Shown here: piece after piece, positions 9,807-26,822 of the stretch
Numbering within the stretch: the first letter of the stretch is position 1
Layout of the letters: the number at the start of each line of letters is the position of its first letter
NCBI GenBank assembly: GCA_016840035.1
Contig: JAEOTC010000106.1
Span: 1-26,822 of the forward strand
DNA: 26,822 nt
Direction: 5' to 3'
DNA from: Candidatus Hodarchaeota archaeon
GTDB lineage: Archaea; Asgardarchaeota; Heimdallarchaeia; Hodarchaeales; Hodarchaeaceae
Notes under the pieces: model-generated
Seen by the model: the letters and a program-made list of their open reading frames with translations, nothing else
What the model was told of the DNA's origin: nothing
The model's database searches: none
Translations under genes and position numbers: made by a program

Positions 9807-10436
9807 ATGAGGTTCATAAAAAAGAAGATTTCATTTCTTCTAGTCCCCTTTTTCGTTCTTTTGATAAGTATTCTTTTATTAAATATACTTTCATTAATTG
9901 AACCAGATCCAATGGACACAATTTGGGAAACACGTCAATTAATTATTGGCTTGTTTGTTTTTACGAGTTTTTCCTTTATTCCTGGATTCATTCAATTATC
10001 CTTCCTTAATTCCTATCCTTGGTTACATGTAAATCTTTCTCACCACTCTGATTTGTTCAAAAAGCATGAATTAAGGTATAAGAATTCATATTTTTGTGTT
10101 GGTTGCTTAGGATCAACGATTAGTATATTGCTAGGGAATTGTATTCTAATTCTCTATTTCTACTTTCCGTCTTCATTTTCGACCATAAATGTCACTCTTC
10201 TCTTTGAAGTAGGGTTACTTATTATTTTGGGTGCCTACAGTAGATATTTCACTGAGTTTTCTGCTAAGATACGATTAATGCAACATACGTGCCTATTTTT
10301 TGGATTATCGATTCTCATAATTGTAGAAGACATCGTTTTTCAATCTGCATTATTTGCTGTATTACTATTACCTAGTTGGCTTTGTTTTTTACTCGTCCGA
10401 GTGAAATTAAGTAAAATTGATCACATAGAACACTAA
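9807..10436 (+). CDS. Multi-pass membrane protein with HH...H...CxxC motif (DUF2085-like, putative metal binding)
   Basis: About 6 hydrophobic segments and the loop LSHHSDLFKKHELRYKNSYFCVGCLG. Confidence 0.65.
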   Translation: MRFIKKKISFLLVPFFVLLISILLLNILSLIEPDPMDTIWETRQLIIGLFVFTSFSFIPGFIQLSFLNSYPWLHVNLSHHSDLFKKHELRYKNSYFCVGCLGSTISILLGNCILILYFYFPSSFSTINVTLLFEVGLLIILGAYSRYFTEFSAKIRLMQHTCLFFGLSILIIVEDIVFQSALFAVLLLPSWLCFLLVRVKLSKIDHIEH

Positions 10437-10522
10437 TGATCACATATTTTTTTTCTGTAATTAGGAGAGGACAATTTTTAATCTAATAAAATGCTTTGCA
10501 ATTTAGTTATTAGTGGTTAATA

Positions 10523-11248
10523 TTGATCGAGCTTAATTTGGCAAGTACTGTTGGTTTGTGGATACTAGCAGTCCTCCTAGGTCTTAAACATTCTTTTGAT
10601 GCTGATCATCTGGTAGCAGTAACAGGAGTTCTAAGTAATGCGCCAAATTCCAAATACACCACTAGATTGAGCATTAGTTGGGCATTAGGCCATATGATCA
10701 CGGCTTCAATACTAACCATAATATTATTTTCATTTAAAGAAACCTTGTTAAAAGAGATATTGAGTAATGCGGAGCTTATTGTTCCTTTTATGCTGATAGT
10801 GATCGCAGCGCTAACAATAGCTTGGGAGTTTGAACTTCTTCATTTTCATCGACATGAACATACACAAACAGACATTGAAGAAACTAAAGGGCACACCCAT
10901 CTTCATTTTCACCTTCCGAATTTATCTGAACATGGTACGATGATGGGGATAGGTATTATTCATGGTTTAGCAAGTAATGATGAATTATTACTGCTTTTTA
11001 CTCTTACACTCGGAATTAATGAGTTATGGGCGATTTTGGTTGGAGTAGTATTTTTCACCGTCGGTGTTATCGGTGGTATGGTTATGTACGGGTGGTTGAT
11101 AAATTTTCCAAGCCAACGCTGGGGAGAAAAACGTGTAACTCGTGTAATTAACTTATCAATTGCTTCTGTGACCATAATTTATGCAATCTGGTTATTACTT
11201 GGTCTTGAGGGTCTAAATATTGTCGATGCTTTTCGCTCATTATTCTGA
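10523..11248 (+). CDS. Nickel/cobalt transporter (NiCoT/HoxN-UreH-like)
   Basis: GLKHSFDADH signature, WALGH, a His-rich loop (HFHRHEH...HTHLHFH) and GIIHGLA. Confidence 0.82.
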   Translation: MIELNLASTVGLWILAVLLGLKHSFDADHLVAVTGVLSNAPNSKYTTRLSISWALGHMITASILTIILFSFKETLLKEILSNAELIVPFMLIVIAALTIAWEFELLHFHRHEHTQTDIEETKGHTHLHFHLPNLSEHGTMMGIGIIHGLASNDELLLLFTLTLGINELWAILVGVVFFTVGVIGGMVMYGWLINFPSQRWGEKRVTRVINLSIASVTIIYAIWLLLGLEGLNIVDAFRSLF

Positions 11249-11296
11249 AGTGAGACAGAGTACAATTAAAAACCCTTTTTTTCCTTTCTCTAAATA

Positions 11297-12055
11297 GTGG
11301 TTGGTATCATGGTTGCCTATGAAATTGCAGTAATGTTTTATGGTACTGTTGCTGGGTTGGCAACACTATTAGGAATCCTTCTCATGCGCGGAAAGCAGTC
11401 ATGGGCAATTGAAAGATCTCAATATGTTAACTCCTTTGCCGCTGGGTTAATTTTAGCATTAGTCTTTTTTCATTTAATGCCTGAAGCTGCAGATCTAACA
11501 GAAATTGCTTTTCCAATAATTTTTATTGGATTTTTTGGTTTTTATTTCTTAGAAAACTTCATTGTAATTCACTCTGGAAGTGAATTGCATTTTCATGAAA
11601 GCGATCCATGTTTACAACATTCTTCTGAAATTAATGGTTATATGGCCTTCTCAGGATTAGCCTTTCATTCTTTTATCGACGGAATCATCATTGGAGTTGG
11701 ATTTGAACTTGGAACAGAAATTGGAGTACTCGCAGCTTTTGCAGTGATAGCTCATGAAGTTCCTGAAGGGGTCACCTCATTCGCTCTGATTAACGAAACA
11801 ATTCCTGATAAATCATTTTTATTCTCATTGATTGTTGCTCTGGTAACACCCATCGGCGCACTGATCTCTCTAACGTTTATTCATAATTTGAATGAAGAAT
11901 TAATTGGTGCATTATTAGCTTTGGCAGCTGGAACGTTCATTTACATTTCTGCATCAGATCTGATTCCTCAGACACATGGAACTCACAATTTACGGATAAT
12001 GGGAGCATTTCTACTTGGTGCGGTTGTAATTATCCTTATTTCGTTGATCTCATAG
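11297..12055 (+). CDS. ZIP family divalent metal (Zn/Fe) transporter
   Basis: FAAGLIL, HLMPEA, HSFIDG, AHEVPEG and GTFIYISASDLIP. The start may be ATG 11309. Confidence 0.92.
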   Translation: MVGIMVAYEIAVMFYGTVAGLATLLGILLMRGKQSWAIERSQYVNSFAAGLILALVFFHLMPEAADLTEIAFPIIFIGFFGFYFLENFIVIHSGSELHFHESDPCLQHSSEINGYMAFSGLAFHSFIDGIIIGVGFELGTEIGVLAAFAVIAHEVPEGVTSFALINETIPDKSFLFSLIVALVTPIGALISLTFIHNLNEELIGALLALAAGTFIYISASDLIPQTHGTHNLRIMGAFLLGAVVIILISLIS

Positions 12056-12063
12056 TACTAGGA

Positions 12064-12948
12064 TCATACTAGTGATTTCACGTCTGCAGTTGCTATTTCC
12101 TTAGTTTTCCGATTCACGAGAAAGTTTCCTATCCAAACAAAGAGGATGGCTACTACAAAACTGATAATTGGAAGTCGAAATAGATAATCATTTTCAGGTT
12201 GAAGGTATAGAACTAAAAGTGTTGTGGCAAGACTTGGGAAGAAAAGATAAGCCCCAGTTCGAAGAAACCAAAATCCATTCGATCCTAATTGGGGTACATA
12301 ATGTCTAGTTAACCCTCCAAATGATGCTGCATCAGCTATTATGTTACCCATCGCTTCATCGTTAGGATGTCCATCTGGAAAATGGACAAGCACCCGTCTG
12401 AATTTTCTACGAAATAATCCAAACGAGAGGAGTTCAAATAAACCAAAGAAGATTGCAAGTACAAATTCAATTCCCAAAGCTACCAGGGGAATAAAATAAG
12501 GTGCTAAATATATTATCAGAAGGAAAACGGCCACTATGGCGAAAAATGCAATTAGAGCTCCAACACTATCACTATTTGAATCACAATCGCTATTTGTATT
12601 GCAACTACCAGTATTACAATCAGAACTAGAACCACTTGATCGACATCCACCTGATGAGGTTCTACCTGTTCTTGTTCCCGATGTACGTCCTCTAGATCTA
12701 CTTTTTGTATAACTTGAGGGTGAAGATCGCGTTGTACGACCACAATTGATATCTCCACAATAATAATAACCTCGACAGCAGGATTCATCTACCATAGCGG
12801 CTCCTGTCCCATCCCCAAATTCCTGTATCTCTTGACGAGCGCATACGGTGTCTCTTGCTGCCAATGCCATTACGTCAGCTTTCACCCCATGTTGAGAACA
12901 TATTTCAGATATTGTATTGGCTGATATTCCATTAAATTCTAATTCCAT
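12064..12948 (-). CDS. Hypothetical membrane protein with a Cys/Ser/Gly/Arg low-complexity N-terminal region and about 4 TM helices
   Basis: SD-like GGTGA upstream and a 16-nt gap from the channel gene. Ten Cys occur in the first ~125 aa, followed by hydrophobic helices. Confidence 0.7.
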   Translation of the reverse strand: MELEFNGISANTISEICSQHGVKADVMALAARDTVCARQEIQEFGDGTGAAMVDESCCRGYYYCGDINCGRTTRSSPSSYTKSRSRGRTSGTRTGRTSSGGCRSSGSSSDCNTGSCNTNSDCDSNSDSVGALIAFFAIVAVFLLIIYLAPYFIPLVALGIEFVLAIFFGLFELLSFGLFRRKFRRVLVHFPDGHPNDEAMGNIIADAASFGGLTRHYVPQLGSNGFWFLRTGAYLFFPSLATTLLVLYLQPENDYLFRLPIISFVVAILFVWIGNFLVNRKTKEIATADVKSLV

Positions 12949-23466: not shown

Positions 23467-24675
23467 TTGAAGGATGAAATGATGAATTCTAAGGAATTAA
23501 AGCAATTAATTTTACAGGAAGCAAAGGAAATTGAATCTTATATCATAAAAACACGTCGTCATATACATCAGTATCCAGAAACCGCCTTTGAGGAGGTTAA
23601 AACTCGTGATCTTGTTGAAAAACAACTACAGGAAATTGGATATAAAACAGTGAGAACCGCAAAAACTGGTGTGGTTGGAATTCTTCAAAGTGCAAAATCT
23701 GGTCCAACTATTGCACTCCGTGCCGATACTGACGCTCTAAACCTTACAGAAGAGAATGATGTCGAATATGCCAGTACTATCCCAGGTAAAATGCATGCGT
23801 GTGGACATGATGCTCATACGGCAATGTTACTAGGTGCAGCTCAATTAATTTTTAAAAATAAAGATCATCTTTCTGGTACGTTAAAACTTATTTTTCAACC
23901 TGCAGAGGAGGGTGGTGGAGGTGGTAAACTCATTTGTGATGAGGGACATCTAGAGGATGTTGACAGAATTTATGGAATTCATGTGTGGAGAGAATTAGAA
24001 TCTGGTCTTATTGGATTGCGAAAGGGAGGAATGTTAGCTTCGGCCGATGAATTCTCTGTTGTCATTACCGGAAAAGGGGGTCATGCAGCGGCTCCTCATC
24101 AAGCAGTTGATCCAACAGCTGTTCTTGTTGATATCTATAACGCTCTCCAAAAAGTAGTTTCCAGAGAAATTGATCCTTTCGATGATGTGATCATTACAAC
24201 ACCTGTATTGCAGGGAAGCGATGCATTCAATGTGATCCCTAGAGAGGCGAAATTAAAGGGAACATTTAGAACAATGGATCCTGTGGTTAGAGATCACATT
24301 CTGAAGCGTATCCCAGAGATAGTAGACGGGTATTGCCAAGCTTGGAGATGTGAAGGAGAAGTAATCTTCAATACTGGTGATATGATCCCCTATCCCCCTC
24401 TGATCAACGATGGCCAGTCAATAGACGACGTTATTACTCTCTTGAAAGACACTGAATTGGAACATGTATCAATGGATCCTTCTATGGGTGGGGAGGATTT
24501 CGCGTTTTACCTTCAAAAGACGAAAGGCGCTTTTCTTACTTTAGGTATTCAGAATGAAGAAAAAGGAATAACAGCCCCTCATCATCACCCACAATTTGAT
24601 GTAGATGAAGCTGTATTGTGGAAAGGAACGGCATTATATGCCCTACTTGCATTTTCAACTTTATTTATTGAGTGA
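23467..24675 (+). CDS. M20D family amidohydrolase / carboxypeptidase
   Basis: RRHIHQYPE, LRADTDAL, MHACGHDAH, FQPAEE, GKGGHAA, GEDF and HHHPQFD. The start may be ATG 23479 or 23482. Confidence 0.93.
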   Translation: MKDEMMNSKELKQLILQEAKEIESYIIKTRRHIHQYPETAFEEVKTRDLVEKQLQEIGYKTVRTAKTGVVGILQSAKSGPTIALRADTDALNLTEENDVEYASTIPGKMHACGHDAHTAMLLGAAQLIFKNKDHLSGTLKLIFQPAEEGGGGGKLICDEGHLEDVDRIYGIHVWRELESGLIGLRKGGMLASADEFSVVITGKGGHAAAPHQAVDPTAVLVDIYNALQKVVSREIDPFDDVIITTPVLQGSDAFNVIPREAKLKGTFRTMDPVVRDHILKRIPEIVDGYCQAWRCEGEVIFNTGDMIPYPPLINDGQSIDDVITLLKDTELEHVSMDPSMGGEDFAFYLQKTKGAFLTLGIQNEEKGITAPHHHPQFDVDEAVLWKGTALYALLAFSTLFIE

Positions 24676-24680
24676 ATTGA

Positions 24681-25832
24681 ATGATCTTTGAAGAAAATCT
24701 TTTGGATATATTGAATGAAACGGGGATAAATGTCCTCTTAACTAATCCTTGTGCTCGATTACAAACAATCTTAAATCTCCTATCTGATGACAAGAATTTC
24801 GATGTTTTAGAGATAACTCGAGAAGAACATGGTGTTGGGTTAGCTGCAGGTGCGTATCTGGCCGGAATGAAACCAGCTATGCTGATTCAAAGTACTGGAA
24901 TAGGAAATATTCTCAATACTGTTGCATCTTTGACCTTAACCTATCAATTCCCTCTCTTGATTATAGCAAGTTGGAGGGGAGTAATAGATGAACCTATAGT
25001 TGCGCAAAATATCTTTGGAAAAGCAGTAGAAGGACTTTTATCATCTCTAAAAATTAAAACTTTGATAGTTGATGAGAATTCAGACTTATCCGATATAAAA
25101 AAAGATATAGAACGATGTTATGAACAAAATGAAGTAATTGTTCTTTTATGCTCCCCACGTGTGTGGACTCAGTCGAAAGAATTGTATTTAGAAAAGGAAT
25201 TTGTGTATTCACGCCAAAGAAAACAACCACAGAAAGTGAAATCCGACGAGCTTTGTATTAAACCTAGTATGACTAGAATGGAAGTTCTTAAAGATCTTAC
25301 TAGGAATATGACATCTAATGATGTCGTTATCGCCAATATTGGTTTTCCCTCTCGTGAATTATTTCACATTGATGACCAAAATCAATTCTTCTACATGACA
25401 GGTAGTTTTGGACAGGTTAGTTCGATCGGTCTTGGAATCGCCAGATATAAACCTAACAAACATGTTTACGTTCTTGAAGGAGATGGAAGTATGTTGATGA
25501 GTCCTGGGATTCTACCCATGATTTCTGCCTATTCCCCCGATAATTTAACCATCGTTTGCTTGAATAATGGAAGTTATGGTTCAACTGGAAACCAACCAAC
25601 CCTTTATACCTCAGGATTCATTGATTTCTGCCTAATTTCACAAGGATTTGGATTTAATCCTGCAGGGATTGAAAATATATGCCAGAAGGATGAACTCCTG
25701 AATATAATTCCTCAGATGTCTGAGTTCCAACTAATACAAATCTTCATTAGACCTGTAAACGCTAAAGTTGAGAGAATTCCTTTAACACCCAAGGAAATAG
25801 GGGATAGGTTCATTCGCTCATTAAAAAGTTGA
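24681..25832 (+). CDS. comDE: Fused sulfopyruvate decarboxylase ComD-ComE (TPP-dependent; phosphonopyruvate decarboxylase not excluded)
   Basis: N-half has NPC, TREEHGVGLAAGAYLAG, QSTGIGN and SWRG. C-half has ANIGFPSRELF, FYMTGSFG, GDGS and NNGSYGSTGNQ. Confidence 0.8.
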   Translation: MIFEENLLDILNETGINVLLTNPCARLQTILNLLSDDKNFDVLEITREEHGVGLAAGAYLAGMKPAMLIQSTGIGNILNTVASLTLTYQFPLLIIASWRGVIDEPIVAQNIFGKAVEGLLSSLKIKTLIVDENSDLSDIKKDIERCYEQNEVIVLLCSPRVWTQSKELYLEKEFVYSRQRKQPQKVKSDELCIKPSMTRMEVLKDLTRNMTSNDVVIANIGFPSRELFHIDDQNQFFYMTGSFGQVSSIGLGIARYKPNKHVYVLEGDGSMLMSPGILPMISAYSPDNLTIVCLNNGSYGSTGNQPTLYTSGFIDFCLISQGFGFNPAGIENICQKDELLNIIPQMSEFQLIQIFIRPVNAKVERIPLTPKEIGDRFIRSLKS

Positions 25833-25834
25833 AA

Positions 25835-26822
25835 TTAAATTCCTTTCTTAAATTCACGTTTTTCTACGTTGTTATTCTGCTTCTGAAGCGTCTGTGATAT
25901 CTTAGATGGCTGGATTCCTGAAGTTATTTGAGAAATCAGTTTCTTTTGATCTATCAGTGAATATCCGCATATTGGACATCCTGATTTCCCTATCAACTCA
26001 TCCACCGAGCTAAAGTCTAAGCCACATCCCCGACAACTAAATGGGAATGCGATTAATTCTCCCGAACAGTTCGGACAATTTGTAGACCCCACTGTAATTA
26101 GATCAACATAATCTGGGGTACAAACAAACCGCTTACAGGACTTACATTGGAAATAATTTTCACCTTGAATCTCACCAATACATACCTGACAATTTGTATC
26201 CCGTGGAGGAATAGATTCTAATAATAGCATATCAGATTTAAGAATGAGGGCTCCATCTTCAAAAGCTAATTTTTCTTTTATAGTCCTTGGAAGGTTGATC
26301 TGGCTTGTTTCCAGTTCAGAGGAGAGGGATTCGATATGGATTGCCTTTCCCCTTATAAGATCTTGGATCCATGTTGGTTTTGGCTTGTAATAATTAATTG
26401 TATCTTCAGCTCTAGTCCTTATTTCTTTCCCAATTCGGAGAGATTCTGCTTTAACTATTGGATAGCTTTTGATGGTAGCCATAATTAAAAGGCCCAAAAG
26501 TGAAGCTAAAATTATTATAGCCAATAATAATGTCACGGGGTTCAAAATAAAATTGTTTGGATCAGTTCCAATGATTATTTCAATATTATCATTAAAAAAG
26601 TCATTATCACTATCAGAATCACGTGGGTTGGTACCATATAAAAATTCATCTCTATTACTCAATCCATCTGAATCCGCGTCATTATCACCGTCATTAATCC
26701 CAATAATAAAATTAAATCGATACTCAAAAATATTAGACATCCCATCATTGTCTAAATCATCATTCGCATCGTCCTTTCCAGCCTGAAGACCATTTTCATA
26801 CTCAAACAAGTTAGGCATTCCA
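25835..26822 (-). CDS. 3' part of a single-pass membrane protein: DxDxDG Ca-binding (TSP3-like) repeats, TM helix, cytoplasmic RING-like finger and Zn ribbon
   Basis: The frame is open to the window edge; GGA precedes the ATG and continues the DG-M-x-N repeat. Repeats include DLDNDGMSN, DADSDGLSN and DSDND. TM is LLLAIIILASLLGLLIMATI, followed by five CxxC pairs and one CxxD. Confidence 0.85.
   Translation of the reverse strand, partial: GMPNLFEYENGLQAGKDDANDDLDNDGMSNIFEYRFNFIIGINDGDNDADSDGLSNRDEFLYGTNPRDSDSDNDFFNDNIEIIIGTDPNNFILNPVTLLLAIIILASLLGLLIMATIKSYPIVKAESLRIGKEIRTRAEDTINYYKPKPTWIQDLIRGKAIHIESLSSELETSQINLPRTIKEKLAFEDGALILKSDMLLLESIPPRDTNCQVCIGEIQGENYFQCKSCKRFVCTPDYVDLITVGSTNCPNCSGELIAFPFSCRGCGLDFSSVDELIGKSGCPICGYSLIDQKKLISQITSGIQPSKISQTLQKQNNNVEKREFKKGI

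Follow-up and report, generated by a model that had tools for sequence, protein, structure and literature searches.

What does a cell-surface protein of an Asgard archaeon do with a cytoplasmic tail rich in cysteines? The question is raised by a gene at the end of a contig of Candidatus Hodarchaeota archaeon (GenBank assembly GCA_016840035.1, contig JAEOTC010000106.1), whose whole 26,822 nucleotides we call the window. The minus strand of the window encodes, from 26821 to 25835, the C-terminal part of a receptor-like protein whose tail carries a RING-like zinc finger. A preliminary description, made from the sequence alone, had proposed a surface receptor coupled to ubiquitin-like or protein-interaction signalling. 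Our analysis indicates that the tail may be a membrane-tethered unit that resembles RING-type ubiquitin ligases (E3) and recruits ubiquitin-conjugating enzymes (E2), which would make signalling through ubiquitin-like conjugation plausible; we give this reading a probability of about 0.42. Whatever its activity, the RING-type finger belongs to a new module, and the receptor-like architecture is new for prokaryotes.

A conserved zinc module in the tail

The tail consists of the following predicted parts, in the order in which they are translated:

26216..26374, minus strand: winged-helix domain of PCI/BirA-N type, three helices and a beta hairpin (AlphaFold2, VIA-align)
26066-26191, minus strand: eight-ligand RING-like finger, CQVC-x11-CKSC-x4-CTPD-x11-CPNC
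25967-26035, minus strand: third zinc site, a CRGC-x15-CPIC ribbon packed on the RING-like finger
25838..25966, minus strand: C-terminal helix packed against the zinc module; the rest is polar and of low complexity (AlphaFold2 helices 148-156 and 163-167)
25835-25837, minus strand: stop codon

The eight-ligand motif lies at exactly the position given in the preliminary description, and the CRGC...CPIC pair follows it. With the tail as the query, HMMER was run exhaustively against 1.84 billion representatives and found 65 proteins at E<=1e-3, 13 of them at E<=1e-30. The conserved module has about 160 residues, is mostly placed at the C terminus of proteins of 90 to 1,600 residues, and sometimes occurs in two copies. 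Our ligand statistics come from an alignment (A1) to which 63 proteins contribute 72 module copies. Every copy has Cys as ligands 7 and 8, 70 to 71 have it as ligands 3, 4 and 5 and 68 as ligand 1, while ligand 2 is Cys in 59, Asp in 6 and His in 2. The sixth ligand is the variable one: His in 29 copies, Cys in 27 and Asp, as in the window protein, in 14. Since 70 of the 72 copies have one of these three residues, all of them classical ligands of zinc, the column provides good comparative evidence for the idea, already put forward in the preliminary description, that Asp serves as a zinc ligand. The CxxC-x15-CxxC ribbon is kept in 63 copies and is absent only from C-terminal second copies. Such conservation of the ligand columns and of the ribbon shows that the cysteine pattern is not due to chance. 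Nine terminal copies stop directly after ligand 8, and the eight-ligand unit is therefore self-contained.

Some positions between the ligands are also constrained. The residue between ligands 1 and 2 is Leu, Ile, Val or Met in 66 of 72 copies (Val213 in the window protein, P0001 numbering here and below), the fourth position after ligand 6 is Leu, Ile or Met in 57 (Leu241), and Pro follows ligand 7 in 55 (Pro250). The spacing C-x2-C-x11-C-x2-C-x4-C-x2-D-x11-C-x2-C fits the pattern of the RING superfamily, C-x2-C-x(9-39)-C-x(1-3)-[CH]-x(2-4)-[CH]-x2-[CHD]-x(4-48)-C-x2-C. Yet no Pfam or NCBIfam model scores above its cut-off on the module (on all 72 copies for Pfam), and the sub-threshold Pfam matches on these copies are of mixed kinds (DZR, zf-UDP, Prok-RING_2, B-box, FYVE). 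A phmmer search of the PDB with the tail as a single sequence gave insignificant matches only (E about 0.2). The ESM Atlas returned no usable match in a feature search; in a shape search it returned only clusters of the RING, RINGv, DZR and B-box kinds, all with template-modelling scores under 0.4. In the literature searched we found no account of a family that combines a winged helix, a RING-like finger and a ribbon.

How does the module fold? With A1 (72 rows) as input, AlphaFold2 produced one rigid model of the whole module (predicted local distance difference test, pLDDT, 95.9; predicted template-modelling score 0.89), in which three helices and a hairpin are followed by a strand-strand-helix unit, further strands and a final helix. 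In VIA-align, the winged helix (model residues 1-60) matches the N-terminal domain of BirA at Z 6.1, and PurR, ScpB, UFL1/DDRGK1 and the PCI winged helices of the proteasome lid and eIF3 at Z 4-5.8. Because the winged helix dominated the structure searches with the whole module, the zinc part was folded and searched alone (pLDDT 88.0); the ribbon at 25967-26035 was modelled at pLDDT above 90. The first match of the zinc part in a Foldseek search of the PDB to be mentioned is RING1B-BMI1 (E 5.9e-4), with RING1B at a root-mean-square deviation (rmsd) of 2.3 Å over 48 columns and probability 1.0. TRAF6, RNF125, TRIM21, c-Cbl and Rad18 were matched too, as were ZZ domains of p62, with template-modelling scores by target of 0.67-0.77.

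A similar picture emerged when 48,161 chains were searched exhaustively with VIA-align, the best 50 matches being almost entirely RING, U-box and ZZ domains: the RING domains of IRF2BP2 (Z 4.6) and RNF213 (4.2), the Prp19 U-box (4.2), the NBR1 ZZ domain (4.1), RING1B (4.0), p44 of TFIIH (3.8) and the RING of the cellulose synthase CesA (3.4). The IRF2BP2 RING is the best structural match (Z 4.6-4.9 over the whole-module and zinc-part searches), and its alignment, like that of the RNF213 RING, reaches into the C-terminal helix. The fact that zinc-free U-boxes are matched as well means that the backbone fold, and not the cysteine content, is behind these matches. Profile searches of the PDB sequences recovered the CesA RING (E 1e-6), p44 (5o85_B, 1.5e-6) and RING1B (2e-5), with all eight ligands in register in the matches to RINGs. 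The likeness to TFIIH p44, which the preliminary description had pointed out, thus holds both in profile and in structure (8ebs_E, Z 3.8). In the model, a beta hairpin carries ligands 3 and 4, and ligands 5 and 6 stand at the start of the central helix, as they do in RINGs. This placement and the homogeneous lists of RING, U-box and ZZ matches point to a RING-type cross-brace followed by a separate ribbon. Hence, the models and the Foldseek and VIA-align searches bear out the earlier suggestion of a cross-brace, which is well supported as a predicted fold. The module as a whole is strongly predicted to consist of a winged helix, a binuclear RING-type finger with Asp as its sixth ligand, and a third zinc ribbon.

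Full protein and membrane topology

The window holds only part of the gene, and the features outside the tail are these:

25835..26821, minus strand: 3' part of the receptor gene, 328 codons and a stop (open reading frame list and translation)
26477-26542, minus strand: single transmembrane helix, residues 547-568 of the joined protein (Kyte-Doolittle scan)
26543..26821, minus strand: end of the ectodomain, with the last two of five full TSP3-type repeats and a DSDSDND stretch
L003:13125-14609, plus strand, on contig C193 of the same assembly: 5' part of the receptor gene
Residues 12-32 of the joined protein: hydrophobic signal/anchor segment (Kyte-Doolittle scan)
Residues ~57-350: seven-repeat WD40 propeller (PF00400, seven stretches, E 2.6e-65, in L003:13125-14609)
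Residues ~350-545: TSP3-type region with five full DxDxDGxxNxxE repeats (motif scan of the joined protein)

Since the window is a whole contig (C51), the reading frame is open at its 5' end, and the window covers only the last 42% of the gene. This contig is part of a 4.3-Mb assembly in 293 contigs, in which the end of C193 is the reverse complement of the window end, with an exact overlap of 127 nt. Joining the two recovers the full gene as a single open reading frame of 781 codons. A misjoin caused by a repeat at the contig break was considered and ruled out, as the 127-mer occurs, in the whole assembly, at those two contig ends only, and the orthologs are colinear. The join is confirmed by P0002, a colinear ortholog of 782 residues with an identical domain order (a "hypothetical protein" of Candidatus Hodarchaeota), and by orthologous reading frames of 775-803 residues in five genomes of the same genus. 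The product is strongly predicted to be a 781-residue type-I membrane protein of a Hodarchaeales-type Asgard archaeon, in which a signal/anchor, a seven-bladed WD40 propeller, five TSP3 repeats, one transmembrane helix and the cysteine-rich tail follow one another.

The propeller has the seven WD repeats expected of a WD40 beta-propeller. The acidic DxDxDG repeats noticed earlier are of TSP3 type: DLDNDGMSNIFE and DADSDGLSNRDE lie inside the window, together with a partial copy at its edge, and the Pfam model TSP3_bac (PF18884) scores 27.2 bits against a cut-off of 25. Judging from their family, these repeats would bind calcium. N-glycosylation sequons are not enriched in the ectodomain (10 observed versus 8.0 +/- 2.4 expected from its composition). 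Apart from the N-terminal signal/anchor, the only hydrophobic segment of the joined protein is the helix at residues 547-568, in agreement with the single membrane span that had been described. The 15 residues before this helix contain no Lys or Arg and the 20 after it contain five, which places the C-terminal 213 residues in the cytoplasm. With the N-terminal signal/anchor, this makes the cytoplasmic topology of the zinc-finger tail well supported. All 11 cysteines of the protein are in this tail.

A family expanded in one Asgard genus

The module marks out a family that has not been curated and that has expanded within a single Asgard genus. All named relatives are annotated as "hypothetical protein" and come from metagenome-assembled genomes of Hodarchaeota or Heimdallarchaeota, one being labelled Thorarchaeota. 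A survey of 301 genomes from across the phylum found the module in all 20 that belong to the same genus (4-12 matches each) and in one of two from the sister family. One further strong match was found elsewhere (E 5e-27), and the remaining ones, at about 1e-7, are likely to be generic zinc-finger matches. Transmembrane segments occur in about half of the 63 proteins, upstream of the module in 27 and as tail anchors in 3. The N-terminal parts are diverse and include WD40-TSP3, right-handed beta-helix and leucine-rich repeat (LRR) regions, multi-pass membrane regions and PCI domains (Pfam PCI in 7 of 63). One shared cytoplasmic module on such varied, sensor-like parts is as expected of a common output or effector domain.

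A related single-pass protein of 433 residues is encoded in the same genome (G000) on contig C292 (L016:1489-2790). Its ectodomain is unassigned; besides this it has a linker rich in Pro and Thr, two zinc ribbons of the classic kind and, at the C terminus, the same eight-ligand finger, with C-x2-D as its first knuckle. Some module copies of related genomes contain in-frame TGA, TAA or TAG codons (e.g., G217:C1:604802-605200 and G211:C359:1871-2170); they could be pseudogenes, errors of the assembly or neighbouring genes that were read through.

Ubiquitin system and gene neighbourhoods

Does the host have a ubiquitin system for the tail to engage? The genome check answers positively: four E2s above the Pfam cut-off, ubiquitin-like (Ubl) genes, an activating enzyme (E1) and JAB are present. 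Ubiquitin genes lie on contigs C184 and C3. A genome scan with zf-RING_2 (PF13639) finds at least 6 canonical RINGs (e.g., C184:77452-77583), one of them in the ubiquitin cluster of contig C184. Asgard and other archaeal cascades of E1, E2 and RING proteins function in vitro (bioRxiv 10.1101/2023.07.25.550441; PMC5654768). None of the three findings that the preliminary description had named as telling against its proposal appeared: the models do not show serial ribbons, the fingers are predicted not to be extracellular, and the genome does not lack E2 and ubiquitin.

Two loci outside the window bear on the function of the module:

L019:4979-13041, contig C112 of genome G000: Ubl cluster, adjoining ESCRT-II
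L003:10950-13103, contig C193: gene of a 717-residue von Willebrand factor A (vWA) surface protein, directly upstream of the receptor gene

The cluster on C112 encodes EAP30 of ESCRT-II (endosomal sorting complex II, required for transport), a Band7 protein, a 585-residue paralog of the window family (L019:6894-8651), a 110-residue C4 ribbon protein, a ThiF-type E1 (L019:9133-10383), a Ubl of 112 residues ending in ...QIKGG (L019:10407-10745), a 262-residue zinc-ribbon protein, an E2 and JAB, in this order. The paralog is soluble and has two winged-helix and RING-like modules, with faint PCI matches; a canonical RING is absent from this E1-Ubl-E2-JAB cluster. The order is repeated on two metagenomic contigs (L020 and L021), with paralogs about 42% identical, and a paralog lies 4-4.5 kb from a C112-type E2 in four of five further genomes (G256, G241, G139 and G130). 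Overall, the paralog stands beside the E1-Ubl(GG)-E2-JAB-ESCRT-II cluster in 7 of the 8 genomes checked. The cluster E2 (L019:11866-12417, P0070) keeps the HPN motif and the catalytic Cys. The segment that separates the two contains about 7 additional residues (WHPNIAIGETRWKWGSNVC), which 25 relatives conserve, and some databases label relatives of this protein "E2 variant".

The vWA protein has an N-terminal signal, a C-terminal transmembrane helix and a short basic tail. Its gene adjoins the receptor gene in all seven genomes examined, in tandem in four and convergently in three, with 40-62% identity, and this conserved pairing suggests a surface complex. A link between this gene and the vWA domain of p44 was also considered and set aside as a coincidence, the vWA protein being a separate, extracellular, type-I protein. 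Genes of Arf/Ras/RagA-like small GTPases flank orthologous receptor genes on two other contigs (L022:7429-8007 and 11052-11648; L023:7043-7741 and 10152-12472), but not the receptor gene in the window. On the other side, the window has two plus-strand genes of ordinary metabolism, convergent with the receptor gene (23467-25832): an M20 peptidase/amidohydrolase (23467-24675) and a fused protein with the N- and C-terminal parts of a thiamine pyrophosphate enzyme (24681-25832), whose stop codon is 2 nt from that of the receptor gene.

Is the tail a ligase?

Three positions of the E2-contact type of RING E3s are hydrophobic and conserved in the module (Val213, Leu241 and Pro250). When the zinc module, with three zinc ions, was co-folded with the cluster E2, the score was 0.37, the best of three controls reaching 0.00, a result graded as weak support. 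Of 80 solved complexes, 58 attained the mark used, as did 2 of 110 mismatched pairs; passes with a score of 0.60 or under make up only 7 of the 80, but include both of these mismatches. Between runs, at least 97% of the contacts agree, with a partner pLDDT of at least 83. As many RING-E2 complexes have already been solved, the pass may reflect likeness only.

If the tail does recruit an E2, one can imagine the following course of events. The WD40-TSP3 ectodomain would bind something outside the cell, probably together with the neighbouring vWA surface protein. The tail would then recruit an E2~ubiquitin-like conjugate to the cytoplasmic side of the membrane. There the receptor itself or nearby proteins could be modified, and this modification might feed the ESCRT pathway. 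A wider version of this scenario, which we consider rather doubtful, is that the winged-helix/RING-like/ribbon module underlies a whole family of E3s, both receptor-type and soluble, that is specific to the Hodarchaeales lineage and expanded there. Its membrane-bound members, such as the window protein with its vWA partner, would link outside events to Ubl tagging on the cytoplasmic side of the membrane and to ESCRT sorting.

Several observations weigh against a ligase. In many RING E3s an Arg or Lys (sometimes Asn) after ligand 8, the linchpin, activates E2~Ub. The Arg/Lys linchpin is absent here: the window protein has Ser at this position, and most copies of the family have Asp (17), Gly (16), Asn (12) or Ser (11), and five Gln (n=72). 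The Pfam models zf-UDP, Prok-RING_2, zf-RING_4/5 and zf-RING_2 all remain below their cut-offs on the module members, and the genome scan with zf-RING_2 misses the receptor gene. For the zinc part the Z-scores do not exceed 4.6, low values of the kind that a domain of only about 50 residues leads one to expect. The RINGs of CesA and IRF2BP2, and p44, are best known as interaction modules, not ligases, and these are the nearest relatives by sequence (CesA RING, p44) and by structure (IRF2BP2 RING). Finally, the receptor gene is itself not near ubiquitin genes, its conserved neighbour being the vWA gene; the synteny comes from the paralog, and from one genus only. Of the proposal made at the outset, the structural part (a cross-brace RING-like finger, its place in the cytoplasm and a host with a ubiquitin system) is supported. 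The functional part, signalling through ubiquitin-like conjugation, is plausible only, with weak support from the co-fold.

Alternative explanations

Many of these observations could also be accounted for if the tail had the same fold and no ligase role, as a zinc-stabilised scaffold for protein-protein interaction or oligomerisation. Through it the surface protein would be connected with partners in the cytoplasm, for instance the cytoskeleton, small GTPases, ESCRT or PCI complexes. We regard this as only slightly less probable than the E3-like reading. Cellulose synthase, TFIIH p44 and IRF2BP2 have RING-like domains that set a precedent, as do ZZ domains that bind peptide termini. The best profile matches of the module are to the first two of these, its best structural match is the peptide-binding IRF2BP2 RING, and the ZZ domains of p62, NBR1 and KCMF1 superpose on the finger at an rmsd of 2-3 Å. 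The lack of the linchpin, the Pfam RING models below cut-off and the weak co-fold all fit a scaffold, as do a winged helix of the PCI type, the PCI scaffolding domains of seven family members and the small GTPase genes beside orthologs. However, a scaffold does not explain why hydrophobic residues at positions of the E2-contact type and a CPxC knuckle are conserved, nor why a paralog is the only RING-like gene of a conserved E1-Ubl-E2-JAB cluster, and the His pair that ends ZZ domains is absent.

Could the tail instead be a membrane-tethered regulator that binds nucleic acids and controls transcription upon an outside signal, either while kept at the membrane or after proteolytic release? The winged helix matches the DNA-binding domains of BirA, PurR, MarR and NiaR at Z 4-6. 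Zinc ribbons are common in archaeal transcription factors, and a winged helix is combined with a ribbon in factors of the TFE/TFB type. However, equally ranked matches of the winged helix are to the protein-binding PCI, UFL1 and ScpB domains, and for the zinc part the matches are to RING, U-box and ZZ domains, not to TFIIB or TFE ribbons. The net charge is -1 for the winged helix (family mean +0.5) and -4 for the zinc part (family mean -1); a module this neutral to acidic makes a role in nucleic acid binding improbable.

Least probable of all is that the cysteines form sequential ribbons (a DZR-type double or triple) and that the RING likeness is an artefact of cysteine-rich composition and of the structure predictor: weak matches to the Pfam models DZR and DZR_2 occur in 28 and 21 of 72 copies, and a C4 ribbon of p44 (residues 287-318) aligns to ligands 7 and 8 and the next CxxC, but the DZR matches are all below cut-off (PF12773 gives 14.1 to 15.8 bits on the window protein against a gathering cut-off of 27.3), two independent high-confidence models have the strand-strand-helix order of RINGs, the exhaustive structural search gave no LIM domains or ribbon tandems, zinc-free U-boxes match too, and terminal copies end right after ligand 8.

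Implications

Sorting receptors of the cell surface by means of ubiquitin is considered a feature of eukaryotes. Ubiquitin, E1, E2, ESCRT and small soluble RING E3s are known from Asgard archaea, and Hodarchaeales are among the closest archaeal relatives of eukaryotes, but we know of no described system that links the Asgard cell surface to the ubiquitin and ESCRT machinery. A family in which a RING-type cytoplasmic output is attached to propellers, beta-helices, LRRs and multi-pass parts is a candidate for this link. The paralog in the Ubl-E1-E2-JAB-ESCRT-II cluster makes the candidate concrete and testable with few recombinant proteins. If the tail is indeed an E3, the receptor would stand in prokaryotes as a counterpart or precursor of transmembrane RING ligases of the receptor type and of receptor down-regulation that depends on ubiquitin. 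If the module is not catalytic, it would still be a new and well-defined zinc module, almost wholly confined to one Asgard genus, with a natural exchange of His, Cys and Asp at a metal ligand.

Comparison with known systems

The closest parallels of the finger are the N-terminal RING of plant CesA (Pfam zf-UDP; 1weo, 8vi0) and the C-terminal RING of p44/Ssl1 (5o85_B, 8ebs_E), with which it shares the spacing C-x2-C-x(11-13)-C-x2-C-x4-C-x2-C-x(10-11)-C-P-x-C and aromatic residues at the second position ahead of ligand 3 and directly behind ligand 6. The structural Z is 3.4-3.8 for the two (p44 8ebs_E residues 337-387: Z 3.8, rmsd 2.6 Å over 51 residues), and the CesA RING is slightly better in the profile search. 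The window protein differs from both in its sixth ligand, which is Asp (His, Cys or Asp in the family), in the winged helix before the finger and in the CxxC-x15-CxxC ribbon after it. It is also a single-pass surface protein, whereas CesA is a multi-pass glycosyltransferase and p44 sits in TFIIH. Moreover, p44, a nuclear protein, carries an N-terminal vWA domain and a C4 finger in the same chain as its C4C4 RING, whereas the chain of the window protein has no vWA domain and resembles p44 only in the finger. The ZZ fingers of p62/SQSTM1, NBR1 and KCMF1 are binuclear cross-braces, as the window finger is predicted to be, and superpose on it at an rmsd of 1.9-3 Å over about 50-55 residues. In contrast, the last ligands of ZZ domains are a His pair, His-x(2-3)-His, and there is neither a long central helix nor a CPxC knuckle in them, whereas the window finger has an 11-residue segment with a helix after ligand 6 and ends in C-P-x-C, both of whose Cys are invariant (72/72).

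The preliminary description had likened the whole protein to membrane E3s of eukaryotes, i.e., RNF43/ZNRF3 and the PA-TM-RING proteins (RNF13/GRAIL/RMR). The order of the parts agrees, since all have a signal peptide, an ectodomain, one transmembrane helix and a cytoplasmic RING-type finger, and the host shares a ubiquitin system with the hosts of these receptor-type ligases. The details do not: the ectodomain is WD40 and TSP3 instead of the PA domain of PA-TM-RING proteins, the finger is C4C4-like with an Asp and without His ligands instead of RING-H2, and there is no detectable sequence relationship outside the finger. With an ectodomain that is not PA and a finger that is not RING-H2, the comparison is limited to the layout.

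In archaea, the RING E3s described from the ubiquitin operons of Caldiarchaeum (PMC5654768) and Helarchaeia (bioRxiv 10.1101/2023.07.25.550441) are small, soluble and canonical. These are detected by Pfam, whereas the window family, known here from sequence and models, is a separate, larger and often membrane-bound module. Both are RING-type fingers in genomes with E1, E2, Ub and JAB, and a paralog of the window family takes its place beside E1, Ubl, E2 and JAB just as the RINGs of the archaeal operons do.

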